Sequence record: PV357171.2 | Length of the DNA stretch: 64,000 nucleotides | Strand: one strand, 5' to 3' | Origin: a phage | In this document: positions 32,589-62,595 of the stretch, piece after piece | How the letters are laid out: each line of letters begins with the position of its first letter | Numbering within the stretch: the first letter of the stretch is position 1 | Translations under genes and position numbers: made by a program | The notes under the pieces: model-generated | What the model saw: the letters and a program-made list of their open reading frames with translations, nothing else | Told to the model about the DNA's origin: nothing | Database searches by the model: none

Positions 32589-32618
32589 TTTGCAACCCTC
32601 TCATTAATTTATATAAAT

Positions 32619-32647
32619 ATTATATAACAAAACTGAGTTGAAAGCAA
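32619..32647 (-). promoter_or_regulatory. early promoter
   Basis: Reverse complement TTGCTT, 17 bp, TATAATATTTATATAAATT. Confidence 0.6.
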
Positions 32648-32660
32648 ATACATTTATAAA

Positions 32661-32689
32661 GAAAAAGCCAAGAACTAGGCATTCTTGGC
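32661..32689 (-). terminator. rho-independent terminator (minus strand)
   Basis: 8-bp stem GCCAAGAA / TTCTTGGC plus T-run on minus strand. Confidence 0.55.
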
Positions 32690-32983: not shown

Positions 32984-33033
32984 TTACATATCCCAAATAC
33001 ACAAAAAGCCCCATATAGGGGCTAATTGGTTTC

Positions 33034-33330
33034 TTATCGGCCTACTGGAGAAGCACGATCTAACTCTGATTGGAGGCTAGTCACACGACGGACTTTCTCG
33101 ACAGGAATAAAACGGAAGCTATCATTAGTGCGAGAGAAGACAAGGATTTCATCATCTTTCGCTTTACGAATACGTTCACGTTTAATACGCTCAGCTAGAT
33201 ATTTATCTTGGGCTGGGTCAAATTCCATCGTACCCTGAAGGTACGTGGTTCCTTTCTGACGAAGTTTCTCGTAATGAAGATAAAACTCACCAAATTTTTC
33301 ACATTGTGCGATAATTTCAGCTTTGGTCAT
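33034..33330 (-). CDS. hypothetical protein
   Basis: 98-aa ORF followed by GCCCC-ATATA-GGGGC hairpin terminator at 33003-33022. Confidence 0.4.
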   Translation of the reverse strand: MTKAEIIAQCEKFGEFYLHYEKLRQKGTTYLQGTMEFDPAQDKYLAERIKRERIRKAKDDEILVFSRTNDSFRFIPVEKVRRVTSLQSELDRASPVGR

Positions 33331-33366
33331 AACTGTGTTCCTTTTGTTGGTGGATTTATCTAAAAA

Positions 33367-33777
33367 TTACTTAGTGATAGCTCGGATTGCTTCTGCCAGA
33401 TGAGCAGCCGCTTTACCGGTCAGTTTGTCGATAATTGCATCATCCAGAAAATCTGGTGCTAAGCCAGCGTCAGAGAATGCTGCGCGAAGGTCGGCATGGG
33501 CTTGAGCTTTGGAGGTACGAGAACCACCGGAAGCTTTTTCTCCAGTAGATGCGCTAGATTTAGAAGTAGAACCAGCAGCTTTCTTGATATACAAACCTGC
33601 TTTAGTCAGCTTCATACGAAAACCGTTCGGAGTTACACCATTTTCCTGGGCAATTTCGCTAACAATTTCCATGCTAACACCCGGACGTTCATCCTCTGGG
33701 AATTGCTCCATACGAGCAACATATTCGGAAGACATTTTTTCAAACAGTTCATCAGTCCACTGAGTTGGAGTAGTCAT
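33367..33777 (-). CDS. hypothetical protein
   Basis: 136-aa ORF with own promoter. Confidence 0.4.
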   Translation of the reverse strand: MTTPTQWTDELFEKMSSEYVARMEQFPEDERPGVSMEIVSEIAQENGVTPNGFRMKLTKAGLYIKKAAGSTSKSSASTGEKASGGSRTSKAQAHADLRAAFSDAGLAPDFLDDAIIDKLTGKAAAHLAEAIRAITK

Positions 33778-33834
33778 ATTTTATATTTCCTTAATTAAGA
33801 ATTAAACAGAATAGTTCTTTCAAACTATGAGAAT

Positions 33835-33863
33835 ATTATATCAAGAATTATAGGATTAAGCAA
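33835..33863 (-). promoter_or_regulatory. early promoter
   Basis: Reverse complement TTGCTT, 17 bp, TATAAT. Confidence 0.6.
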
Positions 33864-33883
33864 CTGAAATTTTTCGGTAACTG

Positions 33884-34144
33884 CTACACATCTAGCTCAA
33901 CAATCTCCCAATCATCCGCTAGAGCTTCGTCTAGAGTTAATTCAACCTCTTCATCACTAGGCAGCAGCGTAGTATCTGAAGGCATCCACACATATTGGCG
34001 TACAGTATTGCTGTCTACATCAAATTTCAATAGTACAGTATACTCTTTATTATTTTCCCAGCTATCCCGCTGGAGATACTTTACATCTCCATCTTTAAGC
34101 AAGTCTGTTAGCTTACTCACGGCGTTTTCCTTTTTCTTTATCAA
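33884..34144 (-). CDS. hypothetical protein
   Basis: 86-aa acidic ORF. Confidence 0.35.
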   Translation of the reverse strand: MIKKKENAVSKLTDLLKDGDVKYLQRDSWENNKEYTVLLKFDVDSNTVRQYVWMPSDTTLLPSDEEVELTLDEALADDWEIVELDV

Positions 34145-34817
34145 GTTTCAGGGCAGCCTTAACAGCTTCGTTAATCAACGAAATTACTTCTTCCCGGGTC
34201 CATTTATACCCTAGAGATTTTACATCAACCCCCAGCTTTTCCAGATGTTTAACAGAGGCCAACTCGTAATTCATATAATGGACGTTCTGTTGTTTGCCTT
34301 CTGATAGGAGCCATACACGGTAACAACCAACAGGATTATCCATTGCTTTTTTGATTTCACCGATACACTGGTATCCAGGAACCCAAACAAGTTCACCAAC
34401 TGCAAATTCTTCTGCTACAGCATCATCAGGAATAATTGGAGGATTCAATGGATCTACAATATCGTTCAAACGAAGCAGAGCACCATATCGTTCCAGAACA
34501 GATTTAACCATTGCTACAGAGCGGTAATTACGATCGGCAATTTCTTCAAAAGAATCACCAGATAAATACTGCTCAATAACGTTAGCTAACTCAATACCTT
34601 CAATGAGTGTGCCACGTTTCTTTTTCTTCATTTCGGCAACTTGAATCTGGCGGTCTTGCCATTCTTCAATCATCCTTTCCATAGTTGGATTGGATGATAC
34701 GCCGAGCATTTCACATGCTGCTTTCTTAGTACCACCGTTCTCCAGATGCTCTATAACTTTTTTAAAGACTTCATCCGGGATTTCATGGATATGTTTCTTT
34801 CTGCGAGAACCAGCCAT
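34113..34817 (-). CDS. hypothetical protein with helix-turn-helix-like segment
   Basis: 234-aa ORF; ATG preceded by GAGGAG; C-terminal basic tail. Confidence 0.4.
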   Translation of the reverse strand: MAGSRRKKHIHEIPDEVFKKVIEHLENGGTKKAACEMLGVSSNPTMERMIEEWQDRQIQVAEMKKKKRGTLIEGIELANVIEQYLSGDSFEEIADRNYRSVAMVKSVLERYGALLRLNDIVDPLNPPIIPDDAVAEEFAVGELVWVPGYQCIGEIKKAMDNPVGCYRVWLLSEGKQQNVHYMNYELASVKHLEKLGVDVKSLGYKWTREEVISLINEAVKAALKLDKEKGKRRE

Positions 34818-34848
34818 ATTTAAACTCCTCTCTCAAATTTATGAATCT

Positions 34849-34877
34849 ATTATACAGAAAAATTTTCCTGAAAGCAA
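34849..34877 (-). promoter_or_regulatory. early promoter
   Basis: Reverse complement TTGCTT, 17 bp, TATAATAGATTCATAAATTTGAGAGAGGAG. Confidence 0.6.
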
Positions 34878-34885
34878 ATAAATTT

Positions 34886-35344
34886 TTAATTTGGATAGAG
34901 TTCGGACTTAAAATTAGCCCTAACTTTTTTAGCCTCTTCTATAGTATTGCACTGCTGGTACTTACGAATAGATCCTTTCTGCATTAGCACACAATATTTA
35001 TCGCCCCTCATGTAGATATTAGGCTCGCCCAACTTATTGTCTTTACGCACATTAATATTGTGCATTTGCTTAGATCTATTGGAGTCTTCTAAATTCTCTA
35101 TAAAGTTGCAATCTTTAATCCTGTTTTTGTGGTCTATCTCTTCTGGTATGTACCCCTTATGATATAAGAATACCAGCTGATGCTCTCCCCAGTGCCTACG
35201 CTTAAACCCTATTCTTATATACCCTTTATGTTTACCCCCGGCAAACTTACCTACTAGACTCTTCTGTCTTGTTTTCTTCCATTTAAGATGGCCTGTTTCA
35301 GGATCATACTCAAAAGCCTCTCTAACCTCTTCCTGTGTTATCAT
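34886..35344 (-). CDS. HNH homing endonuclease
   Basis: GYIRIGF...HQLVFLYHKGYIP..IDHKNRIKDCNFIENLE motif. Confidence 0.7.
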   Translation of the reverse strand: MITQEEVREAFEYDPETGHLKWKKTRQKSLVGKFAGGKHKGYIRIGFKRRHWGEHQLVFLYHKGYIPEEIDHKNRIKDCNFIENLEDSNRSKQMHNINVRKDNKLGEPNIYMRGDKYCVLMQKGSIRKYQQCNTIEEAKKVRANFKSELYPN

Positions 35345-35582
35345 TTTCTTTAATCAATTCTCCTAATTCTCTATAGATTTGATCTAACTCAAAAGATATA
35401 CGTAGTGATATGCTTTGCTTTCTCTGCTTTAGCAACCATGCGCCTATGCCATTTATGGATGCTAGTCTAGCAGGAACCACCCTACATAGCTTCTCCGAAG
35501 TATCATAAACAGGAACTTTGCGTTCTTTTACTGGAAACTTCCTTGTTTCCCATTTTTTATTCTTCACTGTCATTTCTAGCAC
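35322..35582 (-). CDS. hypothetical protein
   Basis: 86-aa ORF overlapping neighbours. Confidence 0.35.
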   Translation of the reverse strand: MLEMTVKNKKWETRKFPVKERKVPVYDTSEKLCRVVPARLASINGIGAWLLKQRKQSISLRISFELDQIYRELGELIKENDNTGRG

Positions 35583-38346
35583 CTAGCTCTGACATTGCTT
35601 CCTCGTGCATCTGACGTTCTTCCTCTGTCATGAATTTGAAAGGAATTGGCATACACTCGATTTTACAATAGGTTCTGTACCAGTCTACGATATTCTCCGT
35701 GTTCATATCTTTACCAATACCCATCATACCAAGATACATTCTAGCATATTTTGGGTTAGCACTCTGACCTGTTTTAAGGAAGAAATCTTTCTTCTTACCT
35801 TTCAGAGCTTCTATGAAAGGTTTGATAGTGACATTTGAACACTTCTTAATATCTTCCCAGAACATCTCATGCATCTTATGGAAGAATGCAGCTCGATCAT
35901 TCGGCTTATCTTTGATATATTGTTCAACATGCTCAACGGTTACATCTTTAATAGACTCCAGATGATAATAGCGAACAAGAAGTAGTTTAGCTTCATACGC
36001 ATCCGCATGACGTGGAGCACAATAATCAGGAGTTGAGTGCAGAATAGCTTTGATTCGCTCTTCTGTATACTCTTTACCAGCACCTTCAATAGTTCCCCAG
36101 CTTTCACTGAAAATATCAATAGTTGCACCCTGATCAAGTAAGTAATAACGTAAAGTACTAGTATAGTTCCTAGATTCCAGCTCCCTGCGACGTGCGTATA
36201 ATTGCTGTGCTAACTCCAGCCAACCCTCATCAATATTATATTGTTCAGAACCTGCGGAGAATCCACTAGTGGATTTATCAATAAAATAATAGATATTCTG
36301 AGCACCACGGTCGCGCCTGATTGCTTGGAAACGCATGTTTGGCGCTTGATTACTGGTTCTAGTAATAACAAATACGTTATCAAAATAGTTGAAGTCAACT
36401 CCACTCGTTACGGATGGACTACATAATAAGCAATCAATTTGTTGATCAATTAGCTCATTAGTTGTATAATCCAGAATACGTCGAATATCCACATCTGAGG
36501 TAGAGTTTGAATGGATTTCCTTAACTAACGCACCCGTATTACGACGCAGTGCCATACCCTTCTCATTCAGTTCATCCGGTCCACAGTCAGATACTAGGAT
36601 AGATTTTTCACCCATCTCTAGAGATGTCTGAAGTGCAACCCAAATACTGGATTCATCCGGGAACTCATAAGCATGAGCTTTTGATAGCATTTTACGGTGA
36701 TGATTATAGAATGCAACTGGTTTATCGAACTCAATCAAAGAACCATATGCTTCAATTGTTTCAGCACTAATATCACCATCTGATAGTATAATGATTTTTG
36801 CAGTTGCAAGAATATCACGAAGAACCTGAATACACTCACGACGTTGTTTAACAACCGGGGCGAATAATAGGTCATTCATTACTGCATCACATTCATCGAT
36901 AAAGATTGCATCAATTTGACCAATAAAACTCTTGAACTTATGCAAAGAGTGAATAGTTGTGGACATACGGTCAATAGCACCACGCTTAAAATTAAGCATA
37001 TCTACAGACTTATCATATTGTCCTGCACTAAATTTCTTGGCATTTGAAGACACCAGTGCTCTAGTATTGGTAATTGCTAAGAAATTACCTTTAATAACTC
37101 CTGAATCCAGCCAACGAACAACAGCCGTTGTTTTACCTGTGCCTAGACTTGCTTTTACAAAAGTCATATAGCCTTCTGGTGGTACAGTATTTAATTTCAA
37201 GAAGTTGTCGGTCTCTAGTGAATTAGTTTCTAGCTTTTTAAGTGGAATACCTTTTAAAATATCCGGTATATCACGTTTAGAATTATTAACAAACGCTTTC
37301 AGAGCCTGCTTACGACCGTTGTTAAAGTAATCTTGAATATTACGACTATTATCTTTAGTTGCAATATATTCTGATAAGGCTGGACGGATTTCTTTTTCTA
37401 GCCATGCGAAGTCAACACCATCCTCTAAAGCTCTGTGATAGAGTTTAGGTATGATACGTAGGTACACTCCATCCTCAGCTTCTTCTAGTTCGCTGATAGT
37501 TTCCTCTACTTTATCAGAGGCAGCTTTTTTACCTTTAATTTGATCGAGTAAAGAGTAAAACTCCTCTTTAAACTCACCTCTAGTTGTTTCATAATCAACT
37601 AGATTATTGGGTAAGTTTACCTTAGAACCCTTAACAAATACCAGACGTGAAGCACCCTCCGCTTTAAACGGATCTACTATACCATCATTAAATAACGGAT
37701 CTGCAAAATAATGGAGCTGTACGGAAGAGTAATAAGCTAAGTCGGCAATATCAAAGCCATACTTTTGTCTACTACTTTCGTTGATAGATGTAAATAAGAA
37801 TTTGATTTGACCCTGAGTCACTTTAATATTAGATTCTAGTATTAAGTGCATTCGGATACCTGGTTTTAGCCCGGCCGAAGACGATGCATGAGCGATAAAC
37901 CCTGCATCAAGAGGAAACATATCCTCACTAATACTATTTAACATTCTAATAATATGTCGAGCCATGCCAACAAGATCAAACTTGTTACAACCACCTGTAT
38001 CTACAATACCATCCACGTCCATTGCGATTATATGACTTGGGTTAGATACATTAAAGTTGCCCTTCTTACGTCGCACATTATTTTTAGGTGCAAGACATCG
38101 ACCTCGTACCGCAACGATATGAGGGTCAGACGTTAAACGTCTCATAAGAGGAAGCATTTCTACTAGGGTTTGAGGATCAACTTCATCAATTACATCAAAC
38201 TTGAAGGGCATTGAAGCTGGTTTACCTTCAGGATGCTTTGAGGAAAATCTTTTAGCAAAAAGATAATCTTCTGCTTTAACTTCTCGCCAATTACCTGTGG
38301 CTAAATCGCGATGAAATCCTGCATGACCTTGTAGGATTGAGAACAC
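35557..38346 (-). CDS. replication origin-binding-protein-like SF2 helicase/ATPase
   Basis: Walker A (ASLGTGKTTAV), DExx-like box (FIDECDA), about 930 aa; probable GTG start at 38346 seven nt after AGGAG (ORF track extends to 38424 with TTG). Confidence 0.55.
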   Translation of the reverse strand: MFSILQGHAGFHRDLATGNWREVKAEDYLFAKRFSSKHPEGKPASMPFKFDVIDEVDPQTLVEMLPLMRRLTSDPHIVAVRGRCLAPKNNVRRKKGNFNVSNPSHIIAMDVDGIVDTGGCNKFDLVGMARHIIRMLNSISEDMFPLDAGFIAHASSSAGLKPGIRMHLILESNIKVTQGQIKFLFTSINESSRQKYGFDIADLAYYSSVQLHYFADPLFNDGIVDPFKAEGASRLVFVKGSKVNLPNNLVDYETTRGEFKEEFYSLLDQIKGKKAASDKVEETISELEEAEDGVYLRIIPKLYHRALEDGVDFAWLEKEIRPALSEYIATKDNSRNIQDYFNNGRKQALKAFVNNSKRDIPDILKGIPLKKLETNSLETDNFLKLNTVPPEGYMTFVKASLGTGKTTAVVRWLDSGVIKGNFLAITNTRALVSSNAKKFSAGQYDKSVDMLNFKRGAIDRMSTTIHSLHKFKSFIGQIDAIFIDECDAVMNDLLFAPVVKQRRECIQVLRDILATAKIIILSDGDISAETIEAYGSLIEFDKPVAFYNHHRKMLSKAHAYEFPDESSIWVALQTSLEMGEKSILVSDCGPDELNEKGMALRRNTGALVKEIHSNSTSDVDIRRILDYTTNELIDQQIDCLLCSPSVTSGVDFNYFDNVFVITRTSNQAPNMRFQAIRRDRGAQNIYYFIDKSTSGFSAGSEQYNIDEGWLELAQQLYARRRELESRNYTSTLRYYLLDQGATIDIFSESWGTIEGAGKEYTEERIKAILHSTPDYCAPRHADAYEAKLLLVRYYHLESIKDVTVEHVEQYIKDKPNDRAAFFHKMHEMFWEDIKKCSNVTIKPFIEALKGKKKDFFLKTGQSANPKYARMYLGMMGIGKDMNTENIVDWYRTYCKIECMPIPFKFMTEEERQMHEEAMSELGARNDSEE

Positions 38347-38843
38347 AACAATACTCCTGTGTTGGAAATGAAATAAGTTTTCTTTAGGACTATTCAGAAA
38401 GAATAGAACAACTGTTACTGTCAATTTCTCAACAAATTAATCGCAAATACTGAAGTGGGGTGGCAACTTCCACTTTCACGCTACACTGCCGCTTCACTAT
38501 ACCGCACAAATCCTTGAGGATGGCCGCTAAGCCAGATTTGCTCACCTAATGCTTCATGTACTAGCTCATACTAGATGCAGTATACCTTACGTCATCACTT
38601 CTCAGAGTTTTTCACTCTTCCCGTCTCACTTCACAACCACCTCACACTAGGTTGCTTCGAGGCCTTACCAGGGTTCCTACGGGGTGTAGATCGCTAAGTA
38701 TTCTATTAACTATTTGTTTAAAAACTAACACGTAACAGTTAAAACAACCCTTAATGGGGCAGCCTAACTGTTCCGTATCGCGGATTGTAAACAAGAAAAA
38801 TTAGCAAAATCAGTTTTTACTAATGTCTCTCAATTATGGGAAT

Positions 38844-38873
38844 ATTATACTATAAAATAATACTCCCTTGCAA
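38844..38873 (-). promoter_or_regulatory. early promoter directing transcription into ORF-free region 38430-38836
   Basis: Reverse complement TTGCAA, 18 bp, TATAATATTCCCATAATTGAGAGA. Confidence 0.55.
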
Positions 38874-38881
38874 ATGAAATT

Positions 38882-39334
38882 TTACTGGATTGATTCCCTA
38901 CCGTATAATTGACCTCTAAACATCTTGGCCATAGAACATGCAACCTCATAGTTATCATATGTTCCTTTAACTATACGTTTACGGTTAATAGTAAATACTA
39001 CTTGCCAGTTCTTACTACCAGAAGGGTAAACATGCATTCCTTTCTTATACTTGATATTTCTTAGATTACCGGATACTGTCTGCTCTCTAAGATTTTCAAT
39101 ACGATCATCACCTTTTACAGTATTCACATGATCTACTAAATCAGGTAAGTATCCGTGATGCATTAAGAAGATAGCTCTGTGTCGGAGCATAGTTCTACTC
39201 CCTAGAGAAATACGGTAATAACCATTTCCCGTTGAAACACAACATTCCTTGCCTGCATTTCTTCCTGTAGTTCTAAATAATTTTCCATCTTCATATCGGA
39301 AATTATCTAAAAGTTCCTGTTGTGTGAGCGACAT
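38882..39334 (-). CDS. HNH homing endonuclease
   Basis: HNH motif (HRAIFLMHHGYLPDLVDHVN....DDRIENLRE); start at ATG 39334 after GGAGG. Confidence 0.65.
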   Translation of the reverse strand: MSLTQQELLDNFRYEDGKLFRTTGRNAGKECCVSTGNGYYRISLGSRTMLRHRAIFLMHHGYLPDLVDHVNTVKGDDRIENLREQTVSGNLRNIKYKKGMHVYPSGSKNWQVVFTINRKRIVKGTYDNYEVACSMAKMFRGQLYGRESIQ

Positions 39335-39473
39335 CTTTACCTCCAATACATATATTATTACATAATCCACCCAATTTGTCAATGACAATTTATTCATACT
39401 GTCAATTAACTGGAAAGATTATATAATAATCCGAGCCAAAATGACTCGGTAGTCAGAGTTCAGCTAATAAAAA

Positions 39474-39866
39474 TCATTCATCATTCAGACCTGGAACATA
39501 GATCCCAACATGGTTTAACTGTTCTTTAGCTTCTTTGAGAATATCTGGAGTGTACTCCCAAATATCATCTTCCACCTGTAAAAGATGGGGCGAACAACCA
39601 TCATCAGGCATACGACATATAGCCAAACCACGTGGATGGAACAAAGAGAAATTTAGGGCAACAATTAAACCCATAGCAGACAACTCATTCCAATCCAATT
39701 CCCATTCCCTAGCGTAGCCTGATAGGAAAACACCAATACAGGGATCGTCTATTTGCTGCTCCGGAAAAGTGAAGGAGGCTTGTCTTACCCCCAACCAACG
39801 TTGTAGCAGCTTCTCCGCACGCTTCACCAAACTAGGATCAATCTGACGCCAATATACTTGTTCCAT
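39474..39866 (-). CDS. hypothetical protein (paralog of adjacent ORF)
   Basis: Shares PCIG...W.EL.EMGL..ALN..LF.P block with 39876..40304. Confidence 0.45.
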   Translation of the reverse strand: MEQVYWRQIDPSLVKRAEKLLQRWLGVRQASFTFPEQQIDDPCIGVFLSGYAREWELDWNELSAMGLIVALNFSLFHPRGLAICRMPDDGCSPHLLQVEDDIWEYTPDILKEAKEQLNHVGIYVPGLNDE

Positions 39867-39875
39867 TCTGCCTCC

Positions 39876-40304
39876 TTAAGCAGTTAAATCTGGGATCATA
39901 TACCCGAAACGTCGAAGTTTCTGAATCCCCTCATTTACTTCTTCCGGTGAATAAGACCAACCATAACGTTCATTAACCTGAAAACCAGGAGATTCACTAG
40001 TTTTATAGTTAACAACTAGGCGATGCTTAGCAGGCATAAACAGCTTATAATTTAACGCAAAAACTAAGCCCATTTCATCTAACTCTTTCCAGCCTACAAT
40101 CTCTTCAAGACCCTCCTCTACCTGAACAATTAAACCAATACAGGGGGCCTCATCAATATCATCTTTAAAAGCAAAGGAGATTTCATTATTCTCACACCAT
40201 ATTTTCAAGGAGTTAATAGCCTCATTATACAGGCTAGCTGGGAGAGTACGCCAAAAGTTAATCAAAATTGGATTAGCTTCTTTAGAGAATACATTATTGA
40301 ACAT
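39876..40304 (-). CDS. hypothetical protein (paralog of adjacent ORF)
   Basis: Tandem paralog of 39474..39866. Confidence 0.45.
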   Translation of the reverse strand: MFNNVFSKEANPILINFWRTLPASLYNEAINSLKIWCENNEISFAFKDDIDEAPCIGLIVQVEEGLEEIVGWKELDEMGLVFALNYKLFMPAKHRLVVNYKTSESPGFQVNERYGWSYSPEEVNEGIQKLRRFGYMIPDLTA

Positions 40305-40306
40305 AT

Positions 40307-40813
40307 TTACACCTTAAATTGTTGTAAGGATTTACACATTTCAAGATCTGGGCTAAATTCTAGCATATAGCTAACAGCTTTTAAATCTTGAAGATTTATC
40401 CCAGTCCTACCGTTGACTATAACCGTTGGATACTGATACATCATAGCACCCGCATCATCAAGCACACACCAATGTTTGAGCTTATGCTTTTCAACGAAAC
40501 GAAGAACAGAATTACCCCTAGATAATCCACCCCCCGTAAAATCCGTTGTACCAAGAAAACGATCGATAAGACCTAATCCGGTCATAATCTGAACGTTCTC
40601 CATCTCATTTCTAACAGAGAACCAAGATGATACCCCAACAATCATTATCGGAGAAGGACGAATAAAATCCTGAAAAGCCTTGAGAAGCGGTTTGAAAACC
40701 CAGTCACTTCCAAAGAAAATCTTTTCATTATCAGGTGCATGATGGTGGGAGATGCTCGAATTGAGCACCCCATCAATATCTAGAAAAATAATTGGAGTAT
40801 TACTTATTTCCAT
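40307..40813 (-). CDS. HAD-superfamily phosphatase-like protein
   Basis: N-terminal motif I FLDIDGVLN (DxDGxL-type). Confidence 0.5.
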   Translation of the reverse strand: MEISNTPIIFLDIDGVLNSSISHHHAPDNEKIFFGSDWVFKPLLKAFQDFIRPSPIMIVGVSSWFSVRNEMENVQIMTGLGLIDRFLGTTDFTGGGLSRGNSVLRFVEKHKLKHWCVLDDAGAMMYQYPTVIVNGRTGINLQDLKAVSYMLEFSPDLEMCKSLQQFKV

Positions 40814-40982
40814 TTTTGTTCCTTTCTAAGAACGTATCATACTCAACCGTATCAACATATATGACGCCATAGTCATCGGATTTATAGTCCATTTCCCATA
40901 ACTCACATCGATAGCACCAACTACCATCTGCCCATACAAATATATCATCGGGATGTGTATATACAGATTTAACTATGGACAT
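40800..40982 (-). CDS. hypothetical protein
   Basis: 60-aa ORF overlapping neighbours. Confidence 0.3.
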   Translation of the reverse strand: MSIVKSVYTHPDDIFVWADGSWCYRCELWEMDYKSDDYGVIYVDTVEYDTFLERNKNGNK

Positions 40983-41805
40983 ATCTGTTTACCTTGCTTC
41001 TCGACACATAAGGTCTACCCTCTAAATGAGCTTCTACACGAGCAATAAAATCAGGATCACTGAAAGCATCTACCGCACCTTTACTCCAGTAAGGGATACC
41101 ACGTTCTTCCAGCTGGTACATCTCACTACGAGTCATACCTTGATAGCCCGGTTCTGCCGCTAGGCCACTATCATAGTAGTTAACAACCATAAGTTTCGCA
41201 GCAGTCAAATTAAGAACAGGAAATAATTCCCAGTAGAAGTTAATTACTTGGTTAGAGCAACCAACCACAATGATCATATCTTGACTGGTAATACCATCAA
41301 AAACATTATACATTTCTGCGTATGCAGGAGCATGTTCTCCAAAGAAGATTACATTAGGTTTAACCCATTTATAATCATCTGGATCAATAGAATTATACCC
41401 TACATCAATAATCCGTTTATTGCTACTATTGTAGCTATCAGCTACAACAACCTCTTTTAAATATCCGTGAATGTGCAGAATGTCACTATGTGGAACACCA
41501 GCACGCTCAATAAGGTCATCAACGTTGGTAGTCAAGTTTACTACTTGACCTGGGTATTGTTTATACCATTCACCAATACGCAAATGCGCAAGATTGGGTT
41601 CAACAGTTTTTAGCTCTTCACGACGCTTGTTGTAAAACATATGGGTTTTATGATAAAAATTACCACGAAAGGCATGAATATTACATACTTCTTCTAGATC
41701 ATAATCATCCCACAATGCTTTACCACTAGCAGTATCAGTACGGAAGGCTCGTACACCACTTTCAACGCTCAAACCTGCACCGCTAATAATAATTAATCTA
41801 CGCAC
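40969..41805 (-). CDS. Sir2-family (sirtuin-like) NAD-dependent protein
   Basis: GAGLSVESGVRAFR (sirtuin GAGIS..SGIP.FR), TTNVDDLIERAG, HIHG catalytic His, VIFFGE and VVGCS blocks; no Zn-ribbon cysteines. Confidence 0.65.
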   Translation of the reverse strand: MRRLIIISGAGLSVESGVRAFRTDTASGKALWDDYDLEEVCNIHAFRGNFYHKTHMFYNKRREELKTVEPNLAHLRIGEWYKQYPGQVVNLTTNVDDLIERAGVPHSDILHIHGYLKEVVVADSYNSSNKRIIDVGYNSIDPDDYKWVKPNVIFFGEHAPAYAEMYNVFDGITSQDMIIVVGCSNQVINFYWELFPVLNLTAAKLMVVNYYDSGLAAEPGYQGMTRSEMYQLEERGIPYWSKGAVDAFSDPDFIARVEAHLEGRPYVSRSKVNRYVHS

Positions 41806-41999
41806 TATACGATTCCTCGCTTAAATCCTTCGATAATATTTCGGAGTAAAATTGCTTCCTCCGGGCGTACCTTTTCTTGCTTAATAAGCATATCCAATCC
41901 AGCAATACAACTAGTTACACCAGCATTATAACCAGAGTTCCATTGCTCAATGAGCATGTTTTCTAGATTACTTTTTAGATTCTGATTCAAGAAGTCCAT
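41805..41999 (-). CDS. hypothetical protein
   Basis: 64-aa ORF. Confidence 0.3.
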   Translation of the reverse strand: MDFLNQNLKSNLENMLIEQWNSGYNAGVTSCIAGLDMLIKQEKVRPEEAILLRNIIEGFKRGIV

Positions 42000-42171
42000 A
42001 AAGTCTCTCCTCTAATTCCATAATACGATTTTCATAAGAGGCACGCAACTTTTCAATTGCCAGCGCACGCACTGTAACCTCATTAGAGTTAATAGCTAAT
42101 TGGGCCAGATCTTCTGTTTCCATACGTCCGTTGTAAATTAAGCGATATTTAAGATGTTTTACGTTTTTCAT
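41968..42171 (-). CDS. hypothetical protein
   Basis: 67-aa ORF. Confidence 0.3.
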   Translation of the reverse strand: MKNVKHLKYRLIYNGRMETEDLAQLAINSNEVTVRALAIEKLRASYENRIMELEERLYGLLESESKK

Positions 42172-42180
42172 TCTTGTTCC

Positions 42181-42462
42181 TTAGTTCTGTACTGTAAATT
42201 CATTCTTATCACAGTGAGCGTAATAATACCCATACATGCGATAAATTTTCACAGCCTTAGTAGACCCCTTCGATTCTTCATAATCAATCCAGAGCCACTT
42301 GTCTTTACCTACATAATGTACCCGAAACTTCTTAACTTTCTTATCATTCCATGTTGCAACAACACGACGATAATCAAATCCACCCAACCAATCTAGAGCC
42401 TTACGTTCTTCACTAGGCCCTCCAAGATGGGAGACATCTACTTTAGGAAGCAACTCGCTCAT
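42181..42462 (-). CDS. hypothetical protein
   Basis: 93-aa ORF with own promoter. Confidence 0.4.
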   Translation of the reverse strand: MSELLPKVDVSHLGGPSEERKALDWLGGFDYRRVVATWNDKKVKKFRVHYVGKDKWLWIDYEESKGSTKAVKIYRMYGYYYAHCDKNEFTVQN

Positions 42463-42490
42463 AGCTTTCTCCTCTCAAATTTATAAATCA

Positions 42491-42519
42491 ATTATACATA
42501 AATTTTTGGCTGAAAGCAA
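42491..42519 (-). promoter_or_regulatory. early promoter
   Basis: Reverse complement TTGCTT, 17 bp, TATAATTGATTTATAAATTTGAGAGGAG. Confidence 0.6.
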
Positions 42520-42520
42520 A

Positions 42521-42553
42521 TAAAATAAAAGCCAGGTCGACTAGCAACCTGGC
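42521..42553 (-). terminator. rho-independent terminator after nrdD (minus strand)
   Basis: Stem GCCAGGT / ACCTGGC followed by T-rich run on minus strand. Confidence 0.55.
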
Positions 42554-42561
42554 TGATTAGC

Positions 42562-44388
42562 TTACTTAAGATTTAAGTGTTTTACTCTACCAAGTACTTC
42601 TTTTTGTTTCCCAGAATTGAAAGGCCTACTGCCCGGGGATCCCAGGTACCCGCAAACCCTACGTGTAACCTCTATTTCTTCAGATCCACAACTCGGACAT
42701 ACAAACCCACGTTCAGAGGCAACAGATTCACCCATATACCCACAGTTGAAGCACTCATCAATTGGTATATTAACACCAATATAATGACTACATTCTAGTC
42801 CCTTATCTACTACGTATTCAAGAGCTTTATGGAACTTTTTCATTTGTGGTAGTTCCACAAACGATATATTACCACCATTAGCTATTTTGGTGAAATGAGC
42901 TTCATACTCAAATTTAGTATCCGGAGCTACCTTCTCCCTTACGTCCAAATGATGACTATTAGTGAGATAGCCTTTATCTGTTAGCCAAGAATACTCAGGG
43001 AACCTACGTTCCAGTAGTTTATTAAAGCGATTACATAGAGACTCACTAGGAGTAGCATACAAGCTAAACCCAAGATTAGTCTCATTAGCTTTAACTTCGC
43101 AACGATTTTTTAGGTGAGTAAGAACTTCCTCTGTAAATTCAATACAGTCCCTATGAGTCTGCGGTAAACTAAACATTATTTGGCACATCTCATAGACCCC
43201 AATATACCCAAGAGATACAGAAGATCTACCCTCAAAAATTGGCCATACATACTCTTCCCTATCTAAACGCACACCAAAACCACCGTGCATATAAAGAATA
43301 GGGGCTTGTTTAGCCTTCACTTTCTTAAGTCTATCCAAGAAAAAATCATGAGCTTCAAAAGCCTCATCCACATATTTGTCCAGAATATCCCAGAAATCTT
43401 CAAAAACCCCATCTGCCTCAGCAGCAACCATAGGTAGATTAATAGACACTACACCTAAATTATTGCGCCCTGCAATTTCTCCGGAGGGGATAGCAGATAA
43501 AAAGCTACGACAACCCATAGGGGCTTTAAAATCACCAGTAACAGCTATAACTTTCTCATAGCTTAAATAGTCTGGGTACATACGGGTAGCAGAACACTCA
43601 AGTGCTAGCTGTTTTATATCATAGTTAGGATCGCCTGGATTTTTATTTAACCCTTCTTTAACTGAGAATACTAGTTTAGGGAAGATAGGGGTTGACTCGG
43701 CAGCACCTAAACCTTTAATACGATTTTGGAGGATGGCTTTCTGAATCATCCTTTCCTCCCACTCCTGACCTAATCCAAAGCCAAGCGTAACAAAAGGGGT
43801 CTGCCCGTTAGAGTTAAATAATGAATTAGTTTCATACTCTAGAGCTTGGAATGCATCATAACACTCTTTTTCAGTAAGCTCAGTAGCATACACAGCAGCT
43901 TTTCTTTCATCCTTGAGCCAACGTAGCCCACGACCCAGATGTTTATTGTAAGACTTTCTGACATACGGGGCTAGAACCTCGTCGATACGATCAATAGAGG
44001 TACCACCATACTGAGCACCAGATACTTGGGCAATAATCTGAGCAGTGATTGCACATGCAGTAGTTATGGATTTAGGAGTTTCAATATTTGCATTACCGAT
44101 TTTAGTACCATTCTTCAGCATGCCCCCCAGATCTACTAAACAACAGTTGGTGTACCCTTGTGCTCTGTAGTCCATGTCATGAATGTGTATTTTACCTAGA
44201 TTATGCGCGTCTAACAGGTGTTTAGGTAATTCTTGCGATACTAAATACTTGTTAATTTCCCCAGCTAATAAGTCCCTTTGAGTATGGAACATCTCACTAG
44301 GCTTATTAGCATTATTATGTTGTAAGTCTTTATCCGCAGTTAGAGTGAGCAGACCTTTGCAATTTTCAATTAATTCATTCTCTGTCAT
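42562..44388 (-). CDS. nrdD: anaerobic ribonucleoside-triphosphate reductase (class III)
   Basis: C-terminal CxxC...CxxC zinc site (CFNC...CPSC) and glycyl-radical motif RVCGYLGS. Confidence 0.8.
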   Translation of the reverse strand: MTENELIENCKGLLTLTADKDLQHNNANKPSEMFHTQRDLLAGEINKYLVSQELPKHLLDAHNLGKIHIHDMDYRAQGYTNCCLVDLGGMLKNGTKIGNANIETPKSITTACAITAQIIAQVSGAQYGGTSIDRIDEVLAPYVRKSYNKHLGRGLRWLKDERKAAVYATELTEKECYDAFQALEYETNSLFNSNGQTPFVTLGFGLGQEWEERMIQKAILQNRIKGLGAAESTPIFPKLVFSVKEGLNKNPGDPNYDIKQLALECSATRMYPDYLSYEKVIAVTGDFKAPMGCRSFLSAIPSGEIAGRNNLGVVSINLPMVAAEADGVFEDFWDILDKYVDEAFEAHDFFLDRLKKVKAKQAPILYMHGGFGVRLDREEYVWPIFEGRSSVSLGYIGVYEMCQIMFSLPQTHRDCIEFTEEVLTHLKNRCEVKANETNLGFSLYATPSESLCNRFNKLLERRFPEYSWLTDKGYLTNSHHLDVREKVAPDTKFEYEAHFTKIANGGNISFVELPQMKKFHKALEYVVDKGLECSHYIGVNIPIDECFNCGYMGESVASERGFVCPSCGSEEIEVTRRVCGYLGSPGSRPFNSGKQKEVLGRVKHLNLK

Positions 44389-45046
44389 TGATTATTTCCT
44401 CGATAAACCTTGCTACTATTTCTGGCTCAATACTAAAAAATTCTGTAGCACCATCAAAATCTTTGTACTGACAATTATATTCCTTAAACTGTAAATGGGC
44501 CTCTCTTTCAATACGCATAGCTTTTGATCTATCTGAAAAGCTATATTCCTTAAATATTTTTAAATCATGTATGTTAGAAGAAGTTTTAATATCTCTGAGT
44601 CTATCTTTAGTTCTGCTAGACACCCCTATTTTGGTTCCCACACTACTTATTAAAATATATACGTTAGTAGGATAATTATCCTTCTCTAATAAACATATAG
44701 GACAACCAGAATTATGATTTCTAACACTATCAAGTGTAGACTCCCATCTATGATTATTCTCACAGCTGAACATAATTTTACTCTTAGAATTGATGTATTT
44801 ACCTTCCATCTTTATTCCACGAGCAGCTAAGGATTCATTTACCTCTTTAAGATCTAAAGTACGACTAGCACAATAAGGGCAACCTCTCCCACCTTTTACA
44901 TTATCTACTCTAGCCTCCCAGATATGTCCATTAGAGCACTTAAATACAGCATTGGATTTAGCTGATATATACGTGCTTAGCATAATTATTCCTCTGGGAG
45001 CAAGTGTTAAGTTCACATCTTCTGTAGTTATTTTCTTTCTTACCAT
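44375..45046 (-). CDS. T5orf172/GIY-YIG-like domain protein with N-terminal duplicated zinc ribbons
   Basis: Two C..H...C..C repeats, then NVYILISSVGTKIGVS..R block resembling the T5orf172 (GIY-YIG superfamily) domain. Confidence 0.5.
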   Translation of the reverse strand: MVRKKITTEDVNLTLAPRGIIMLSTYISAKSNAVFKCSNGHIWEARVDNVKGGRGCPYCASRTLDLKEVNESLAARGIKMEGKYINSKSKIMFSCENNHRWESTLDSVRNHNSGCPICLLEKDNYPTNVYILISSVGTKIGVSSRTKDRLRDIKTSSNIHDLKIFKEYSFSDRSKAMRIEREAHLQFKEYNCQYKDFDGATEFFSIEPEIVARFIEEIINDRE

Positions 45047-53405: not shown

Positions 53406-53434
53406 TTGCTAAACGCTTCAAATTCTTGTATAAT
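53406..53434 (+). promoter_or_regulatory. early promoter
   Basis: TTGCTA, 17 bp, TATAATATACTTCATAAATT. Confidence 0.65.
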
Positions 53435-58015: not shown

Positions 58016-58186
58016 ATGAAGAACTTGATCGTCATTGGTGTTAACACTCGCGGTATTCGTACTACGAAAACTATTAAAACTTCTAACGTTGCTGAAATCA
58101 CTACGAACCCTAAAAAGTTTGATTTCGCCAAAGTCTCAGCAGTTATGACGGAGCAATCTTTTAACCAAGCGTTAGGACTGAAATAA
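58016..58186 (+). CDS. small hypothetical protein (56 aa), below ORF-track threshold
   Basis: ATG 7 nt after GAGAGGAAG and directly behind a family promoter; stop overlaps next ATG (TAATG). Confidence 0.45.
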   Translation: MKNLIVIGVNTRGIRTTKTIKTSNVAEITTNPKKFDFAKVSAVMTEQSFNQALGLK

Positions 58187-58629
58187 TGGAAGAGAATATT
58201 TTAGATGTTTTGCGTAGAGCTTTGCAGGATTCTAAGTTTAATGGTTCTGATAAAGAAGTCGCTAAAAGCTATCAGACCATAATCGGGGATCTTCAGCGTA
58301 TTGATAAAGATTTCATCACTTCTGAACAATTTGTGTCTTATCTCAAAGCTCAACTAAAAAGCATTAACCAGATGAAAGCTAAACTTCATGGTCAAGATCT
58401 TGATAGTTATAGCTTGCAGTCCGCTCAGTATGAATACATTCTAAATAAGTGGTTGCAGGAGTATCTGCCTCCTCAGTTATCTGATACTGAGATTCGTAAA
58501 TACTTTGCAGAATTAGTTAAGCTAAACCCTGGAATTACAAAAGGTATGCTGATGAAAGCGATTAAGGAAGAATTTCCTGGGCGTTATGATGGTGGTACTG
58601 CTGCTCAGATTGCTGGCGAATTTAATTAA
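58186..58629 (+). CDS. hypothetical protein
   Basis: 147-aa ORF. Confidence 0.45.
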   Translation: MEENILDVLRRALQDSKFNGSDKEVAKSYQTIIGDLQRIDKDFITSEQFVSYLKAQLKSINQMKAKLHGQDLDSYSLQSAQYEYILNKWLQEYLPPQLSDTEIRKYFAELVKLNPGITKGMLMKAIKEEFPGRYDGGTAAQIAGEFN

Positions 58630-58637
58630 AAATTTAC

Positions 58638-58666
58638 TTGCTAAATGCTTATAAATTCTGTATAAT
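58638..58666 (+). promoter_or_regulatory. early promoter driving ORF-free RNA region
   Basis: TTGCTA, 17 bp, TATAATATATTCATAAATT. Confidence 0.65.
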
Positions 58667-59463
58667 ATATTCATAAATTAGGGAACAGCGAGCCGATTAC
58701 GCTGAGTGCAGAATCCCAACCGGAGCGCATTGAATAGAGTCGGTGGGTTAGTTGTAAAACTAGTACACAGGGGGCGGCAATCCCGGTTAGTGGCTAGAAC
58801 GTGTAAAATGAGGCGTCTGAAACCTCTCCCCTAAACTCTTCTCTAATTTATAAATAGTGGGGTGTGGAAATCACTTATGTAGTAACACTGCCGTCCTAGT
58901 ATAATTGGTATTATCAAGCCGTAACTGGTGGAAGATGTAGGTTCGAATCCTACGGTCGGTAAGAACTGGATAACTGATGCTTTTAACGTAAAAGCTTCCG
59001 AGGTTAGTTGCGCACTGCCTAAACCACGCGGTAGTTGGTTCCAGACTAACCAACCAGTCTGCTGAATAGTTTTATTACGATTTAACTATGCCCAGGCTAA
59101 AGAAGAACTTTAGAAGGTATTCTAGGATAGTGAAGTTCTTTCTCCATATCGGAGTAGTTTTTCAAGCTATCCACAAAGTGGGAAATGCTGACATGAGAGA
59201 TGTCACTAATGGTGCACAATAGCACAGGTAATTCGCGATAACCCCTGTTGAGTAGCAGCAAAAGGCGGGAAGTCATGACCCCAAGCCTAACCGAGTCCTC
59301 AATATACCGCAGGACATAACCACTAAGTCCCCCTGACTTAAACTGGAAAATAATAGACGTTACTGTATTTTGTCTTGAAATACTTAATGAGTGAGACTTA
59401 TGACTCTCCCGGTATCGTCTGTATTTTTAAGAGTTTTTACGAGAGTTCTTAAAAATACTTAAA

Positions 59464-59535
59464 CGGGGTGTAGTCTAAGGGAGAGGCAGGAGTCTTCTAA
59501 ATTCCTTTATGCAGGTTCGAATCCTGTCACCTCGG
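59464..59535 (+). tRNA. tRNA-Arg (anticodon UCU)
   Basis: Hand-folded cloverleaf: acceptor CGGGGTG / CACCTCG, D-stem GTCT / AGGC, anticodon stem GGAGT / ATTCC with loop CTTCTAA, T-arm GCAGG-TTCGAAT-CCTGT, CCA encoded. Confidence 0.75.
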
Positions 59536-59572
59536 CCAATTTTATTAACTGTAGCTAAAACAAAGGAAATAT

Positions 59573-60520
59573 ATGTTTAATACTAAAAATATGAAAGAAC
59601 TGACTTCTGAGCAGAAAGTAATTCGTACTATTAAACGTTGGGGTATTGGTGCTGTAGTTGGTTTAGCAGGTTTAATCCTAGCTTTTAATTCATATACTGT
59701 TGTTCAAGACGGTACTGTTAAAACCCAGACTTTCCTGGGTAAAGTTGACCCTAGCCCAGTATTACCCGGCTTTCATATTGTAAATCCTTTTGCTTCTTTC
59801 GATACTTTTAGTACTAAAGATATTGCCCTAAAATTAGATAAACTTCAGGTTCCTAGCCAGGATAAGTTTAAATCCACTGTTGACCTGACTGTTATGTTGC
59901 AGTTTGATGGTTCTAAGGCACCAATTAACCGTATTAACGCAGGTACTCAGGATCAGGCGTTAGACAAGTATGTAACTGAAAAATTACTGTCTACTATTCG
60001 TGAGTTTGGTAAGTCTGTACCTAAAGCACAAGATTTGTTTGATGCTAAAATTCAGGCTCAATTGCAAACTGCAATTCAACAGGAAGTTGAAGAGTATGCA
60101 CGCCCATATGGTTACACAGTTAAGCAGGTATTCCTTCAGGATATTACTTTGCCACCGGTAATCATGGAACAGGTACAGAATACCAAAGTTCGTGAAGAGC
60201 AAGTTAATGCTGCGAAAGCTGAACTGGCCCGCGTTGAACAAGAAGCGCAGCAAAAGGTTAAACAAGCAGAAGCAGACCGTGAAGCTCGCAACAACCAAGC
60301 TATTGCTAATGAACGTGACGCAGATGCTAAACTGTACGCAGCTAAGAAAGAAGCTGAAGCTAACGCCGCATTGCAACGTACCATTACTCCTGAGATGATT
60401 CGCTGGAAGCAACTGGAAGTTGAAATGCTTCGTGCTGAAAAATACCAAGGTGGTGTACCGCAAACAGTAGTGGGAACTGGTTACGATGGCCAGATGATCA
60501 TGGATATGCGTAATAAGTAA
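59573..60520 (+). CDS. SPFH/band-7 (HflK/C-like) domain membrane protein
   Basis: N-terminal TM helix, then SPFH-type core and Ala/Glu/Gln-rich coiled coil; 315 aa. Confidence 0.5.
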   Translation: MFNTKNMKELTSEQKVIRTIKRWGIGAVVGLAGLILAFNSYTVVQDGTVKTQTFLGKVDPSPVLPGFHIVNPFASFDTFSTKDIALKLDKLQVPSQDKFKSTVDLTVMLQFDGSKAPINRINAGTQDQALDKYVTEKLLSTIREFGKSVPKAQDLFDAKIQAQLQTAIQQEVEEYARPYGYTVKQVFLQDITLPPVIMEQVQNTKVREEQVNAAKAELARVEQEAQQKVKQAEADREARNNQAIANERDADAKLYAAKKEAEANAALQRTITPEMIRWKQLEVEMLRAEKYQGGVPQTVVGTGYDGQMIMDMRNK

Positions 60521-60544
60521 TATCCGCATGTAATCTCTGAAGTA

Positions 60545-60582
60545 AGCCCTGTGTTCCCTGGAGAGCGCAGGGCTTTTCTGTA
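60545..60582 (+). terminator. rho-independent terminator
   Basis: Stem AGCCCTG / CAGGGCT with structured loop, then TTTTCTGTATTT. Confidence 0.55.
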
Positions 60583-62566: not shown

Positions 62567-62595
62567 TTGCTAAATGCCGAGATTTTCTGTATAAT
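62567..62595 (+). promoter_or_regulatory. early promoter driving tRNA pair
   Basis: TTGCTA, 17 bp, TATAATATATTTATAAATT. Confidence 0.65.

Follow-up and report, generated by a model that had tools for sequence, protein, structure and literature searches.

Known Large Phage RNAs and the RNAX Locus

Among the described systems closest to the locus treated here are the large ornate RNAs GOLLD (RF01998) and ROOL (RF03087); OLE is a further homo-oligomeric ornate RNA. GOLLD is phage-encoded, often lies near tRNA genes, joins a conserved 3' region to a less conserved 5' region, and at times carries tRNAs in the linker between the two (PMC12286853). The same paper describes ROOL as having multiple pseudoknots and assembling by kissing loops and A-minor contacts; it assigns the symmetric kissing loops of GOLLD to one covarying and one simply conserved self-complementary loop, and it reports that palindrome switching validated such loops in both OLE (GGCC, GAUC, and AGCU) and GOLLD (PMC12286853). 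In this study, a 64,000-nucleotide stretch of phage DNA (sequence record PV357171.2, hereafter the window) from a T5-like phage (Tequintavirus, Demerecviridae) was analyzed around its positions 58673-59463. With good confidence, this interval is the gene for RNAX, a highly structured non-coding RNA of ~790 nt found specifically in T5-like phages (Demerecviridae).

RNAX resembles GOLLD in being phage-encoded, ~800 nt long, and placed beside tRNA genes, and, at the level of sequence, also in its conserved 3' and variable 5' parts, a tRNA-like module in the linker, and two palindromic loops; these are resemblances and not features that define the family. It differs from GOLLD in lacking a covariance-model match (window at the gathering score; 58500-59600 at E <= 10), in its hosts, the RNAX phages infecting Enterobacterales, and in palindromes of 6-8 nt compared to a dinucleotide core in the covarying GOLLD loop L21a. 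With ROOL, RNAX shares the character of a large ornate RNA of phages or prophages, often near tRNA islands, with pseudoknots and no known protein partner; RNAX gave no match to the ROOL model, and an embedded tRNA-like module is not described for ROOL in the available part of the source (PMC12286853).

Small stable RNAs of T5 itself (RNAI, RNAIII, RNA1, RNA2H, RNAIV, and rna2) are annotated at 30287-33086 of record AY692264, where they likewise have no stated function and lie among tRNA genes. They measure 100-170 nt, compared to 640-1000 nt for the multi-domain RNAX. Both these RNAs and the species 1 and 2 RNAs of phage T4 are stable phage RNAs interspersed with tRNA genes and released from tRNA-containing transcripts, as is proposed for RNAX.

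Identity and Distribution of RNAX

A blastn comparison of positions 58600-59560 with public phage genomes returned 579 records, nearly all of them T5-like phages (Demerecviridae) that infect Salmonella, Escherichia, or Klebsiella, and the best matches were Tequintavirus genomes at 99.5% identity. The interval 58673-59463 was homologous to rnaX/RNAX, which carries the GenBank note "stable RNA with unknown functions" and is annotated as misc_RNA in T5 (AY543070; 719 nt), BF23 (NC_042564; 784 nt), and DT571/2 (NC_047749; 636 nt). Identity by blastn reached 97.6% across the full length (100% of the query) for BF23 rnaX, 92.5% over 78% of the query for T5, and 95.7% over 78% of the query for DT571/2. 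The order of the annotated loci was also shared, running on the same strand from a YqeY-like gene through promoter P16-17 and RNAX to tRNA-Arg(UCU), and in all three records the rnaX annotation ends at the base immediately preceding the tRNA. Compared to the window, the T5 and DT571/2 genes matched in the tRNA-like module, the 3' core, and the terminal hairpin F and were without the 5' domain, of which the bare P1 hairpin was left; T5 rnaX further contained an 83-nt insertion 3' of hairpin H8.

Since three curated records annotate the interval, the existence of the RNAX gene is already on record, and the public annotation consists of coordinates only. A literature search, limited to one searchable library, found no paper describing RNAX, and no earlier description of its architecture was found; the structure reported below seems new. 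Both the identification as RNAX and its description as a structured RNA are very likely correct. Among the covariance models of Rfam 15, no family except tRNA matched (window at gathering scores; 58500-59600 at E <= 10). Sub-threshold matches at E <= 10 to Hrs13, a Tetrahymena snoRNA, a miRNA, and a baculovirus element were noise far below their gathering scores. The models searched without a match included group I and group II introns, RNase P RNA, the Y RNA-like YrlA, and HEARO; transfer-messenger RNA was found neither by ARAGORN nor with Rfam; and in 12 related loci, tRNA was likewise the only family that passed.

The RNAX family extends over the Markadamsvirinae (Tequintavirus, Epseptimavirus, and Erwinia phage KEY), Sugarlandvirus, and the Mccorquodalevirinae (Pectobacterium phage DU_PP_V). 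Motifs such as AGUCAUGACC were invariant over this range despite the divergence of the neighboring endolysin and YqeY proteins, which in KEY, DU_PP_V, and Kp127 were 39-64% identical to those of the window. A metagenome scan yielded 10 contigs, most of them 100-115 kb long or with a full-scoring 3' core, and a scan of IMG/VR returned known Demerecviridae genomes only; the contigs that could be checked were T5-like. The sole match in a bacterial genome, in a Lachnospiraceae metagenome-assembled genome contig (329-370), was rejected as a chance fit to a gapped pattern with no other similarity to the window.

Covariation Supports a Conserved 3' Core

The most widely shared part of the architecture (Table 1) comprises the 3' core and the terminal hairpin (59421-59458), which were present in every lineage examined. 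The core was modeled with RNAalifold on 20 variants and manual inspection, and its pairs were counted in a MAFFT alignment (A2) and in a model-fitted alignment (A3) that leans towards structure. In A2, 85.8% of the cells were paired compared to 26-45% when the partners were slid, 24 of 37 pairs carried compensatory changes (13.7 +/- 2.1 in shuffles; 0/500 as high), and the covariation score was 0.305 compared to 0.144; in A3 the corresponding values were 92.3% of the cells and 27/37 pairs. A covariance model built from A2 (R1) matched once in the 64-kb window (190 bits) and once in each related locus searched, gave no match on an unrelated control locus, and recovered the core of DU_PP_V, which lay outside the seed, at 17.2 bits (E = 0.012).

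The divergent phage DU_PP_V also bears on the long-range pairings. Both GUGG motifs (equivalents of 58857 and 59178) were ACGG in this phage and both CCAC motifs (59024 and 59320) were CCGU, and these paired changes support two long-range helices. In addition to the closing helix of the four-way junction, a pairing of the linker GUGG (58857-58860) with CCAC (59024-59027) is proposed. Sequence comparison hints that RNAX contains a pair of sub-domains closed in a similar way, the first enclosing the tRNA-like module and the second corresponding to the 3' core; both alternative assignments of GUGG to CCAC partners covary in DU_PP_V, the sole informative lineage. A UGCUG/CAGCA pairing considered within the core was dropped because, by eye, T5 alters one side without compensation. 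The 83-nt insertion of T5 falls between the equivalents of 59339 and 59340 and duplicates the UAAACUGGAA motif after H8.

Downstream of the core, the closing stem of the 3' sub-domain, compared by eye, was GACGG/CCGUC in STyj5 and a different stem in mar003J3, with 9/10 positions paired. Hairpin F was the most widely conserved piece of RNAX, being 92.9% identical in DU_PP_V, and most of the 455 phage records that matched the DU_PP_V region did so through this hairpin. It has 12 perfect bp (59421-59432/59447-59458), extending to 17 bp with three G-U pairs. The fifth pair is U-A in the window, C-A in Epseptimavirus and DU_PP_V, and C-G in Klebsiella phages; further changes convert G-U to A-U and U-G to C-G, and KEY keeps 15/17 pairs around a 40-nt insertion in the loop. 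In 26175III, Kp127, KEY, and phiR2-01, open reading frames (ORFs) stand between hairpin F and tRNA-Arg, and the hairpin stays with RNAX.

A Lineage-Variable 5' Domain and a Modular Layout

The 5' domain was tested in an alignment of 26 distinct variants (A1; 31 pairs, 500 shuffles), in which 95.8% of the cells were paired compared to 41-47% with partners slid, and 9/31 pairs were compensatory compared to 1.0 +/- 0.9 in shuffles, none of the 500 being as high. Invariant single-stranded motifs (GAACAGCGAGCCGAUUACGCUGA, UGAAUAGAGUCGGUG, GUAAAA, and UAAACUCUUCU) alternate here with hairpins that are fully different in sequence between lineages. Changes in the length of P1 were matched on both strands in phiR2-01 and KEY, and the P1 strands of DU_PP_V read AGUAAAGAA/UUCUUUACU. 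The closing pair of P2 changed from G-C to A-U in DU_PP_V, and the central pair of the pseudoknot was found as C-G, U-A (KEY), and A-U (DU_PP_V).

Pairwise blastn against 16 relatives revealed that the blocks of RNAX are kept, swapped, or lost independently of one another. The 5' domain was present in the window, BF23, Epseptimavirus, Klebsiella Sugarlandvirus, Erwinia KEY, and Pectobacterium DU_PP_V and reduced to the bare P1 hairpin in T5 and DT571/2. An HNH_3 homing-endonuclease ORF (717-1199 of each locus, E = 1.2e-11), situated between the P16-17 promoter and the conserved linker, exactly replaced the domain in smaug and mar003J3. The 5' domain is a lineage-variable and dispensable part of the RNA.

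A Non-decoding tRNA-Like Module and the Middle Region

The linker leads into a module that matched the Rfam tRNA family and that was not called by ARAGORN, for which tRNA-Arg(UCU) was the sole tRNA in the region. Features that the module shares with a tRNA are the acceptor stem, a GG-containing D arm, and a T arm and T loop (58937-58953) that are both canonical; it differs in being embedded in a 790-nt RNA with conserved flanks and in having no canonical anticodon stem-loop. Together, the shared parts make up the tRNA elbow, which RNase P and other tRNA-binding proteins recognize. The 7-bp acceptor stem pairs GCCGUCC (58890-58896) with GGUCGGU (58954-58960) and contains a U5-U68 mismatch and a terminal G1-U72 pair. 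In place of a canonical anticodon arm (5-bp stem and 7-nt loop with U33), there is an arm of ~3 bp with the 6-nt loop GUAACU, where the Infernal tRNA model skips 18 nt, and no CCA is encoded after the acceptor (GGUCGGU-AAGAAC), unlike in the CCA-encoding tRNA-Arg. The bacterial Y RNA-like YrlA is another tRNA-like RNA, and RNAX had no YrlA or Y RNA match in Rfam.

Across 22 variants of the module (alignment A4), 12/21 pairs of the cloverleaf were compensatory compared to 6.0 +/- 1.4 expected. The acceptor, D, and T stems were kept, and the anticodon stem was paired in 63.6% only. Acceptor strands varied from GCCGUCC/GGACGGU in BF23 to GCCGACC/GGUCGGU in T5 and GCCCUCU/AGUGGGA in DU_PP_V; position 5:68 was an unpaired U-U in 16/22 variants, and 1:72 was G-U or a mismatch (G1-A72). 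The anticodon loop had 6 nt (GUAACU or UUCACC) or was replaced by a long hairpin in Klebsiella phages. The modules of relatives scored 29-50 bits with the Rfam tRNA model, those of T5, Klebsiella phages, and phiR2-01 falling below threshold, and only Erwinia phage KEY had a canonical-looking tRNA-Pro(UGG) at this position (50 bits). The immediate flanks were as conserved as the module itself. In EPS7-type Epseptimavirus (L010, L011, L019, and L030), the flanking motifs were retained around an unrelated 46-nt element of two hairpins, closed by an acceptor-like stem CCAGA/UCUGG, that takes the place of the module. Judged from these sequence features, RNAX holds one non-decoding, tRNA-shaped module and not an ordinary tRNA. 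Annotators have labeled it tRNA-OTHER, tRNA-Sec, tRNA-Ser, tRNA-Leu, or tRNA-Pro.

These comparisons refine the original prediction, made from the sequence of the window, which had described tRNA-like fragments in the region. The perfect T arm that it placed at 58937-58953 was found exactly there, and the complementary 5' acceptor strand that it had missed is GCCGTCC (58890-58896), pairing with GGTCGGT (58954-58960) in an element of 35.5 bits. The fragments reduce to this single module (58890-58961), as the second T-arm-like element proved to be an ordinary hairpin, GTTGGTT/AACCAAC (59034-59054), in a lineage-variable stretch. The hairpin GCTTTTA/TAAAAGC exists at coordinates 1 nt from those given, the hairpin AAGAACTT/AAGTTCTT at 59103-59140 was present as described, and the hairpin reported with 9 bp at 59421-59457 is real and longer, corresponding to hairpin F with its UACG loop. 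By eye, the hairpin at 58979-58995 covaries between lineages (GCUUUUA/UAAAAGC, GCUUAU/AUAAGC, GGUUC/GAACC, and GGUUA/UAACC), and in the middle region the inner UAGAA/UUCUA hairpin becomes UAGGC/GCCUA in Klebsiella phages.

Table 1. Positions of the features of the RNAX locus within the window, with the basis or remarks for each.
Feature	Positions	Strand	Basis or remarks
Sigma-70 early promoter	58638-58666	+	-35 TTGCTA 58638-58643, 17-nt spacer, -10 TATAAT 58661-58666; 10/12 consensus positions
RNAX 5' domain	58673-58851	+	Alignment A1 and pair counts
Helix P1, 13 bp	58673-58685 / 58839-58851	+	Inverted repeat; closes the 5' domain
Hairpin P2	58686-58690 / 58700-58704	+	
Pseudoknot, P2 loop GCCGAU with GUCGGU	58692-58697 / 58739-58744	+	Partner 45 nt downstream
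Hairpin P6	58810-58813 / 58823-58826	+	
Conserved linker UAGUGGGGUGUGGAAAUCACUUAUGUAGUAACACU	58855-58889	+	GUGG 58857-58860; small GUG/CAC hairpin
tRNA-like module	58890-58961	+	Rfam tRNA (RF00005), 35.5 bits; gathering score 29
Conserved post-module segment	58962-59027	+	GAUAACU motif, hairpin, CUAAACCAC motif (CCAC 59024-59027)
Hairpin GCUUUUA-ACG-UAAAAGC	58979-58995	+	Inverted repeat
Lineage-variable middle region	59028-59171	+	
Hairpin GUUGGUU/AACCAAC	59034-59054	+	
Hairpin AAGAACUU/AAGUUCUU (DNA AAGAACTT/AAGTTCTT)	59103-59140	+	Encloses UAGAA/UUCUA
RNAX 3' core, ~180 nt	59172-59352	+	A2, RNAalifold, pair counts
Four-way junction closing helix GUGG/CCAC	59178-59181 / 59320-59323	+	
H2	59189-59194 / 59200-59205	+	Junction arm
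H3 UGGU/ACCG	59210-59213 / 59290-59293	+	Junction arm carrying H5 and H6
H5 ACAGG/CCUGU	59224-59228 / 59244-59248	+	Loop palindrome UCGCGA 59233-59238
H6 AGGCGGG/CCCAAGCCU	59263-59269 / 59280-59288	+	Loop palindrome GUCAUGAC 59272-59279
H7	59295-59299 / 59311-59315	+	Junction arm
H8	59325-59329 / 59335-59339	+	External hairpin after the junction
3' sub-domain	59353-59420	+	Minimum free energy fold; two hairpins, conserved CUUAAU motif
Sub-domain closing stem AGACG/CGUCU	59355-59359 / 59416-59420	+	
Terminal hairpin F, 17 bp, UACG loop	59421-59437 / 59442-59458	+	Inverted repeat; 5 nt before tRNA-Arg
tRNA-Arg(UCU)	59464-59538	+	ARAGORN; co-transcribed; CCA encoded
SPFH/Band_7 gene	59573-60520	+	Band_7 domain
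First downstream intrinsic terminator	60544-60575	+	Strong, 13-bp stem; 3' of the SPFH/Band_7 gene

Transcription Unit, Proposed Biogenesis, and Dispensability

The strong promoter at 58638-58666 is annotated as P16-17 in the BF23 and T5 records. Matches to its pattern TTGCTAAA-N15-TATAAT, of which the window has 48 with <=3 mismatches compared to 21.8 +/- 4.6 expected, are the T5 early-promoter family, and perfect copies occur at 31167-31195 (-), 53406-53434, 58638-58666, and 62567-62595. Transcription would be expected to start at ~58673, ~7 nt past the -10 box and at the first base of P1. On the + strand, no intrinsic terminator was found from the promoter until 60544-60575, a position that matches the "bidirectional terminator ter1" of BF23 beside an annotated T5-type single-strand nick site, so the promoter, RNAX, tRNA-Arg, and the SPFH gene form one transcription unit. 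On the basis of the promoter, the G-U pairs, and the annotation of relatives, RNAX was judged to be transcribed from the + strand.

In the proposed biogenesis, the 5' end of RNAX would lie inside P1, and RNase P, by cutting tRNA-Arg free at its 5' end, would generate a 3' end consisting of hairpin F and 5 nt; this RNase P-dependent release of RNAX is likely, and the internal tRNA-like module may be a further site of RNase P cleavage. Since both ends would be held in long helices, the RNA is expected to be stable, in agreement with its GenBank label as a "stable RNA".

RNAX is missing from T5 st0 (AY692264). In this record, a recombination site at 33674-33683 joins the truncated YqeY-like gene T5p079 to T5p066. 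The resemblance to the window ends at 58219, and the 18 kb inspected (record 27000-45000) contained no RNAX body. As T5 st0 is viable without RNAX, tRNA-Arg, and the SPFH gene, these are not needed for growth on laboratory Escherichia coli, and the deletion makes RNAX an accessory gene. Because of this viable mutant, RNAX would be expected to act in trans as an accessory factor.

The YqeY-like gene (58186-58629) lies directly upstream of the RNAX promoter and scored 25.4 bits with Pfam PF09424 (cut-off 27). YqeY is the tRNA-binding tail domain of GatB, and the stand-alone YqeY-like protein could be a partner of the tRNA-like module. The gene adjoins RNAX in T5, STyj5, phiR2-01, KEY, and DU_PP_V (39-93% amino acid identity) and was not found in the Klebsiella Kp127 locus.

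Alternative Explanations of the Locus

The structure might serve in cis, controlling only the processing, stability, or yield of tRNA-Arg and the SPFH mRNA, with the excised RNA being functionless. In favor of this reading, RNAX invariably precedes tRNA-Arg(UCU) on a common strand, no terminator intervenes, and hairpin F abuts the tRNA in most phages. However, 26175III, Kp127, KEY, and phiR2-01 carry 0.5-1 kb of ORFs before tRNA-Arg while the core and hairpin F are conserved together, the other tRNAs of the window have no such leader, and 790 nt with pseudoknots and a four-way junction far exceed any known tRNA leader. We consider a purely cis-acting role unlikely.

The original prediction had named as candidates degenerate or non-canonical tRNAs, tRNA pseudogenes left by homing endonucleases, and small RNAs, and much of its description of the region was borne out. 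The promoter at 58638-58666 is a zero-mismatch member of its family with 10/12 consensus positions and is the annotated P16-17; no credible ORF precedes tRNA-Arg, none being > 60 aa within 58630-59572; ARAGORN found no canonical tRNA except tRNA-Arg(UCU); and neither ARAGORN nor Infernal recovered the ordinary tRNAs throughout the region that would make it a plain tRNA cluster. Of its candidates, small RNAs and non-canonical tRNAs came nearest, given a non-coding RNA gene with one non-canonical module, except that there is one RNA of ~790 nt. A non-functional spacer of decayed tRNA genes and homing-endonuclease scars, transcribed by virtue of its position, would account for a module with a degenerate anticodon arm where KEY has tRNA-Pro(UGG) at 50 bits, for HNH and other ORFs inserted in or replacing parts of the locus, for its mosaic architecture, and for its absence from the viable T5 st0. 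Against such decay, the tRNA-like element is single and ~90% of the region has no likeness to tRNA; across two subfamilies, the remaining ~700 nt carry > 30 compensatory base pairs and invariant junction motifs; conservation holds though the flanking proteins have diverged to 39-64% identity; and neither AGUCAUGACC nor hairpin F would have stayed unchanged in a neutral spacer. The locus is indeed remodeled by homing endonucleases, as the HNH_3 ORF in smaug and mar003J3 illustrates; they swap or delete whole modules and leave the core intact. On the comparative sequence data, covariation largely refutes this origin, which we regard as very unlikely: the locus is an RNA gene known by the name RNAX and not tRNA debris.

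It is highly improbable that the conserved features act as DNA, for instance as operators, homing-endonuclease targets, or a replication or packaging signal. The perfect palindromes TCGCGA, GTCATGAC, and GTGCAC, a near-perfect 38-bp inverted repeat, and the activity of homing endonucleases in the region would suit such an element, and symmetric operators covary symmetrically too. However, many of the supported pairs in P1, H3, H6, and hairpin F are G-U, and the opposite strand would have C-A at these positions; only in a single strand are long-range and nested helices, a pseudoknot, and a cloverleaf meaningful; and palindrome density is not raised.

Virtually no credence can be given to the short ORFs of 42-60 aa, annotated in several GenBank records as 2-3 hypothetical proteins, as genes for real peptides, since no frame is conserved, similarity jumps between frames and strands, indels are not multiples of three, and conservation follows the helices. 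Translated homologues from eight lineages were similar in all frames on both strands, with frame shifts between lineages, and no ORF > 60 aa occurs from the end of the YqeY-like gene to the start of the SPFH gene (58630-59572); a protein-coding role was rejected on these grounds. Many GenBank records place 2-3 "hypothetical protein" coding sequences within RNAX, some with names such as "recombination related exonuclease". These coding sequences and the tRNA-Sec, tRNA-Ser, tRNA-Pro, and tRNA-OTHER labels inside RNAX are probably mis-annotations.

Palindromic Loops and a Possible Self-Assembly

Two palindromes lie in the apical loops of the adjacent, covariation-supported hairpins H5 and H6. The H6 loop GUCAUGAC (59272-59279) is self-complementary and invariant in every sequence. 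The palindrome of the H5 loop differs by lineage: UCGCGA in the window, CGCGCG in T5, CUCGAG in 26175III and L058, (U)CCGCGG(A) in Klebsiella phages, and GUGCGCAC in phiR2-01 (GUCGCGCAC-type). In the lineages with CUCGAG, the H5 stem is also different (CUAGGAAG/CUUCCUAG). Loop shuffles in four independent sequence classes gave chance values of 0.18, 0.07, 0.11, and 0.006, which combined by hand (Fisher) to ~0.003. A general enrichment of palindromes was rejected, as the region holds 8 of >= 6 nt compared to 13.1 +/- 3.5 expected, and the signal concerns the specific loops only. GUGCAC at 59212 was rejected as a third kissing loop; it forms a local hairpin GUGC/GCAC, or GUGC/GUAC in Epseptimavirus.

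Because adjacent bases of one loop cannot pair mutually, a loop that switches sequence yet stays self-complementary points to pairing between copies of the RNA. Since this signature marks symmetric kissing loops in GOLLD and OLE, self-assembly of RNAX is a testable hypothesis. The two self-complementary loops of the 3' core would join copies of RNAX into a homo-oligomeric RNA particle, like those of GOLLD, ROOL, and OLE, and this particle may carry or present the tRNA-like module. By analogy with these RNAs, assembly through the two loops is a tentative proposal that we hold possible at most. Whether RNAX would represent a third independent class of ornate phage RNA besides GOLLD and ROOL, combining a symmetric homo-oligomer with display or enclosure of the tRNA module and an accessory role during infection, is doubtful; in such a role it might, for example, divert a tRNA-directed host enzyme or a defense nuclease as a decoy or sponge.

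Several points weigh against RNAX as a structured functional RNA and against its assembly. No experimental evidence was found for the transcript, its ends, or its stability, "stable RNA" being a GenBank note. A handful of divergent lineages (DU_PP_V, KEY, Klebsiella phages, and 26175III) supply much of the covariation, and kinship among the sequences inflates the shuffle statistics. The minimum free energy z-score of the whole RNA, -1.45 for the + strand and -1.27 for the - strand, was unremarkable and speaks neither for nor against structure. Large parts of RNAX are dispensable, as shown by deletions, inserted ORFs, and swapped modules, and as the tRNA-like module is swapped out in EPS7-type phages, it cannot be indispensable to the central function of the RNA. 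The palindrome evidence is modest, with a per-lineage chance of 0.006-0.29, and the H5 loops of KEY and L024 keep CGCG only; the pattern was seen post hoc and is therefore suggestive only.

Significance for T5-Like Phages

What appears to be new is a large, modular, and pseudoknotted RNA with abundant covariation across the Demerecviridae, one non-decoding tRNA-shaped module, and the sequence signature of symmetric kissing loops. RNAX merits an Rfam family, as records now carry spurious hypothetical proteins, tRNA-Sec, tRNA-Ser, and tRNA-OTHER at this position. GOLLD and ROOL are giant, tRNA-adjacent phage RNAs for which assembly into RNA-only nanocages was recently demonstrated; their hosts are difficult to handle experimentally. 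RNAX shares their genomic setting and several of their architectural signatures, and it occurs in T5-like phages infecting E. coli and Salmonella, which offer > 500 sequenced relatives, T5 st0 as a natural deletion mutant, and full genetics of the host. As T5 is a classical coliphage, the function of ornate RNAs would become testable by E. coli genetics if RNAX is one of them, and if both the structure and the self-assembly hold, RNAX would be a tractable system for the function of giant phage RNAs.

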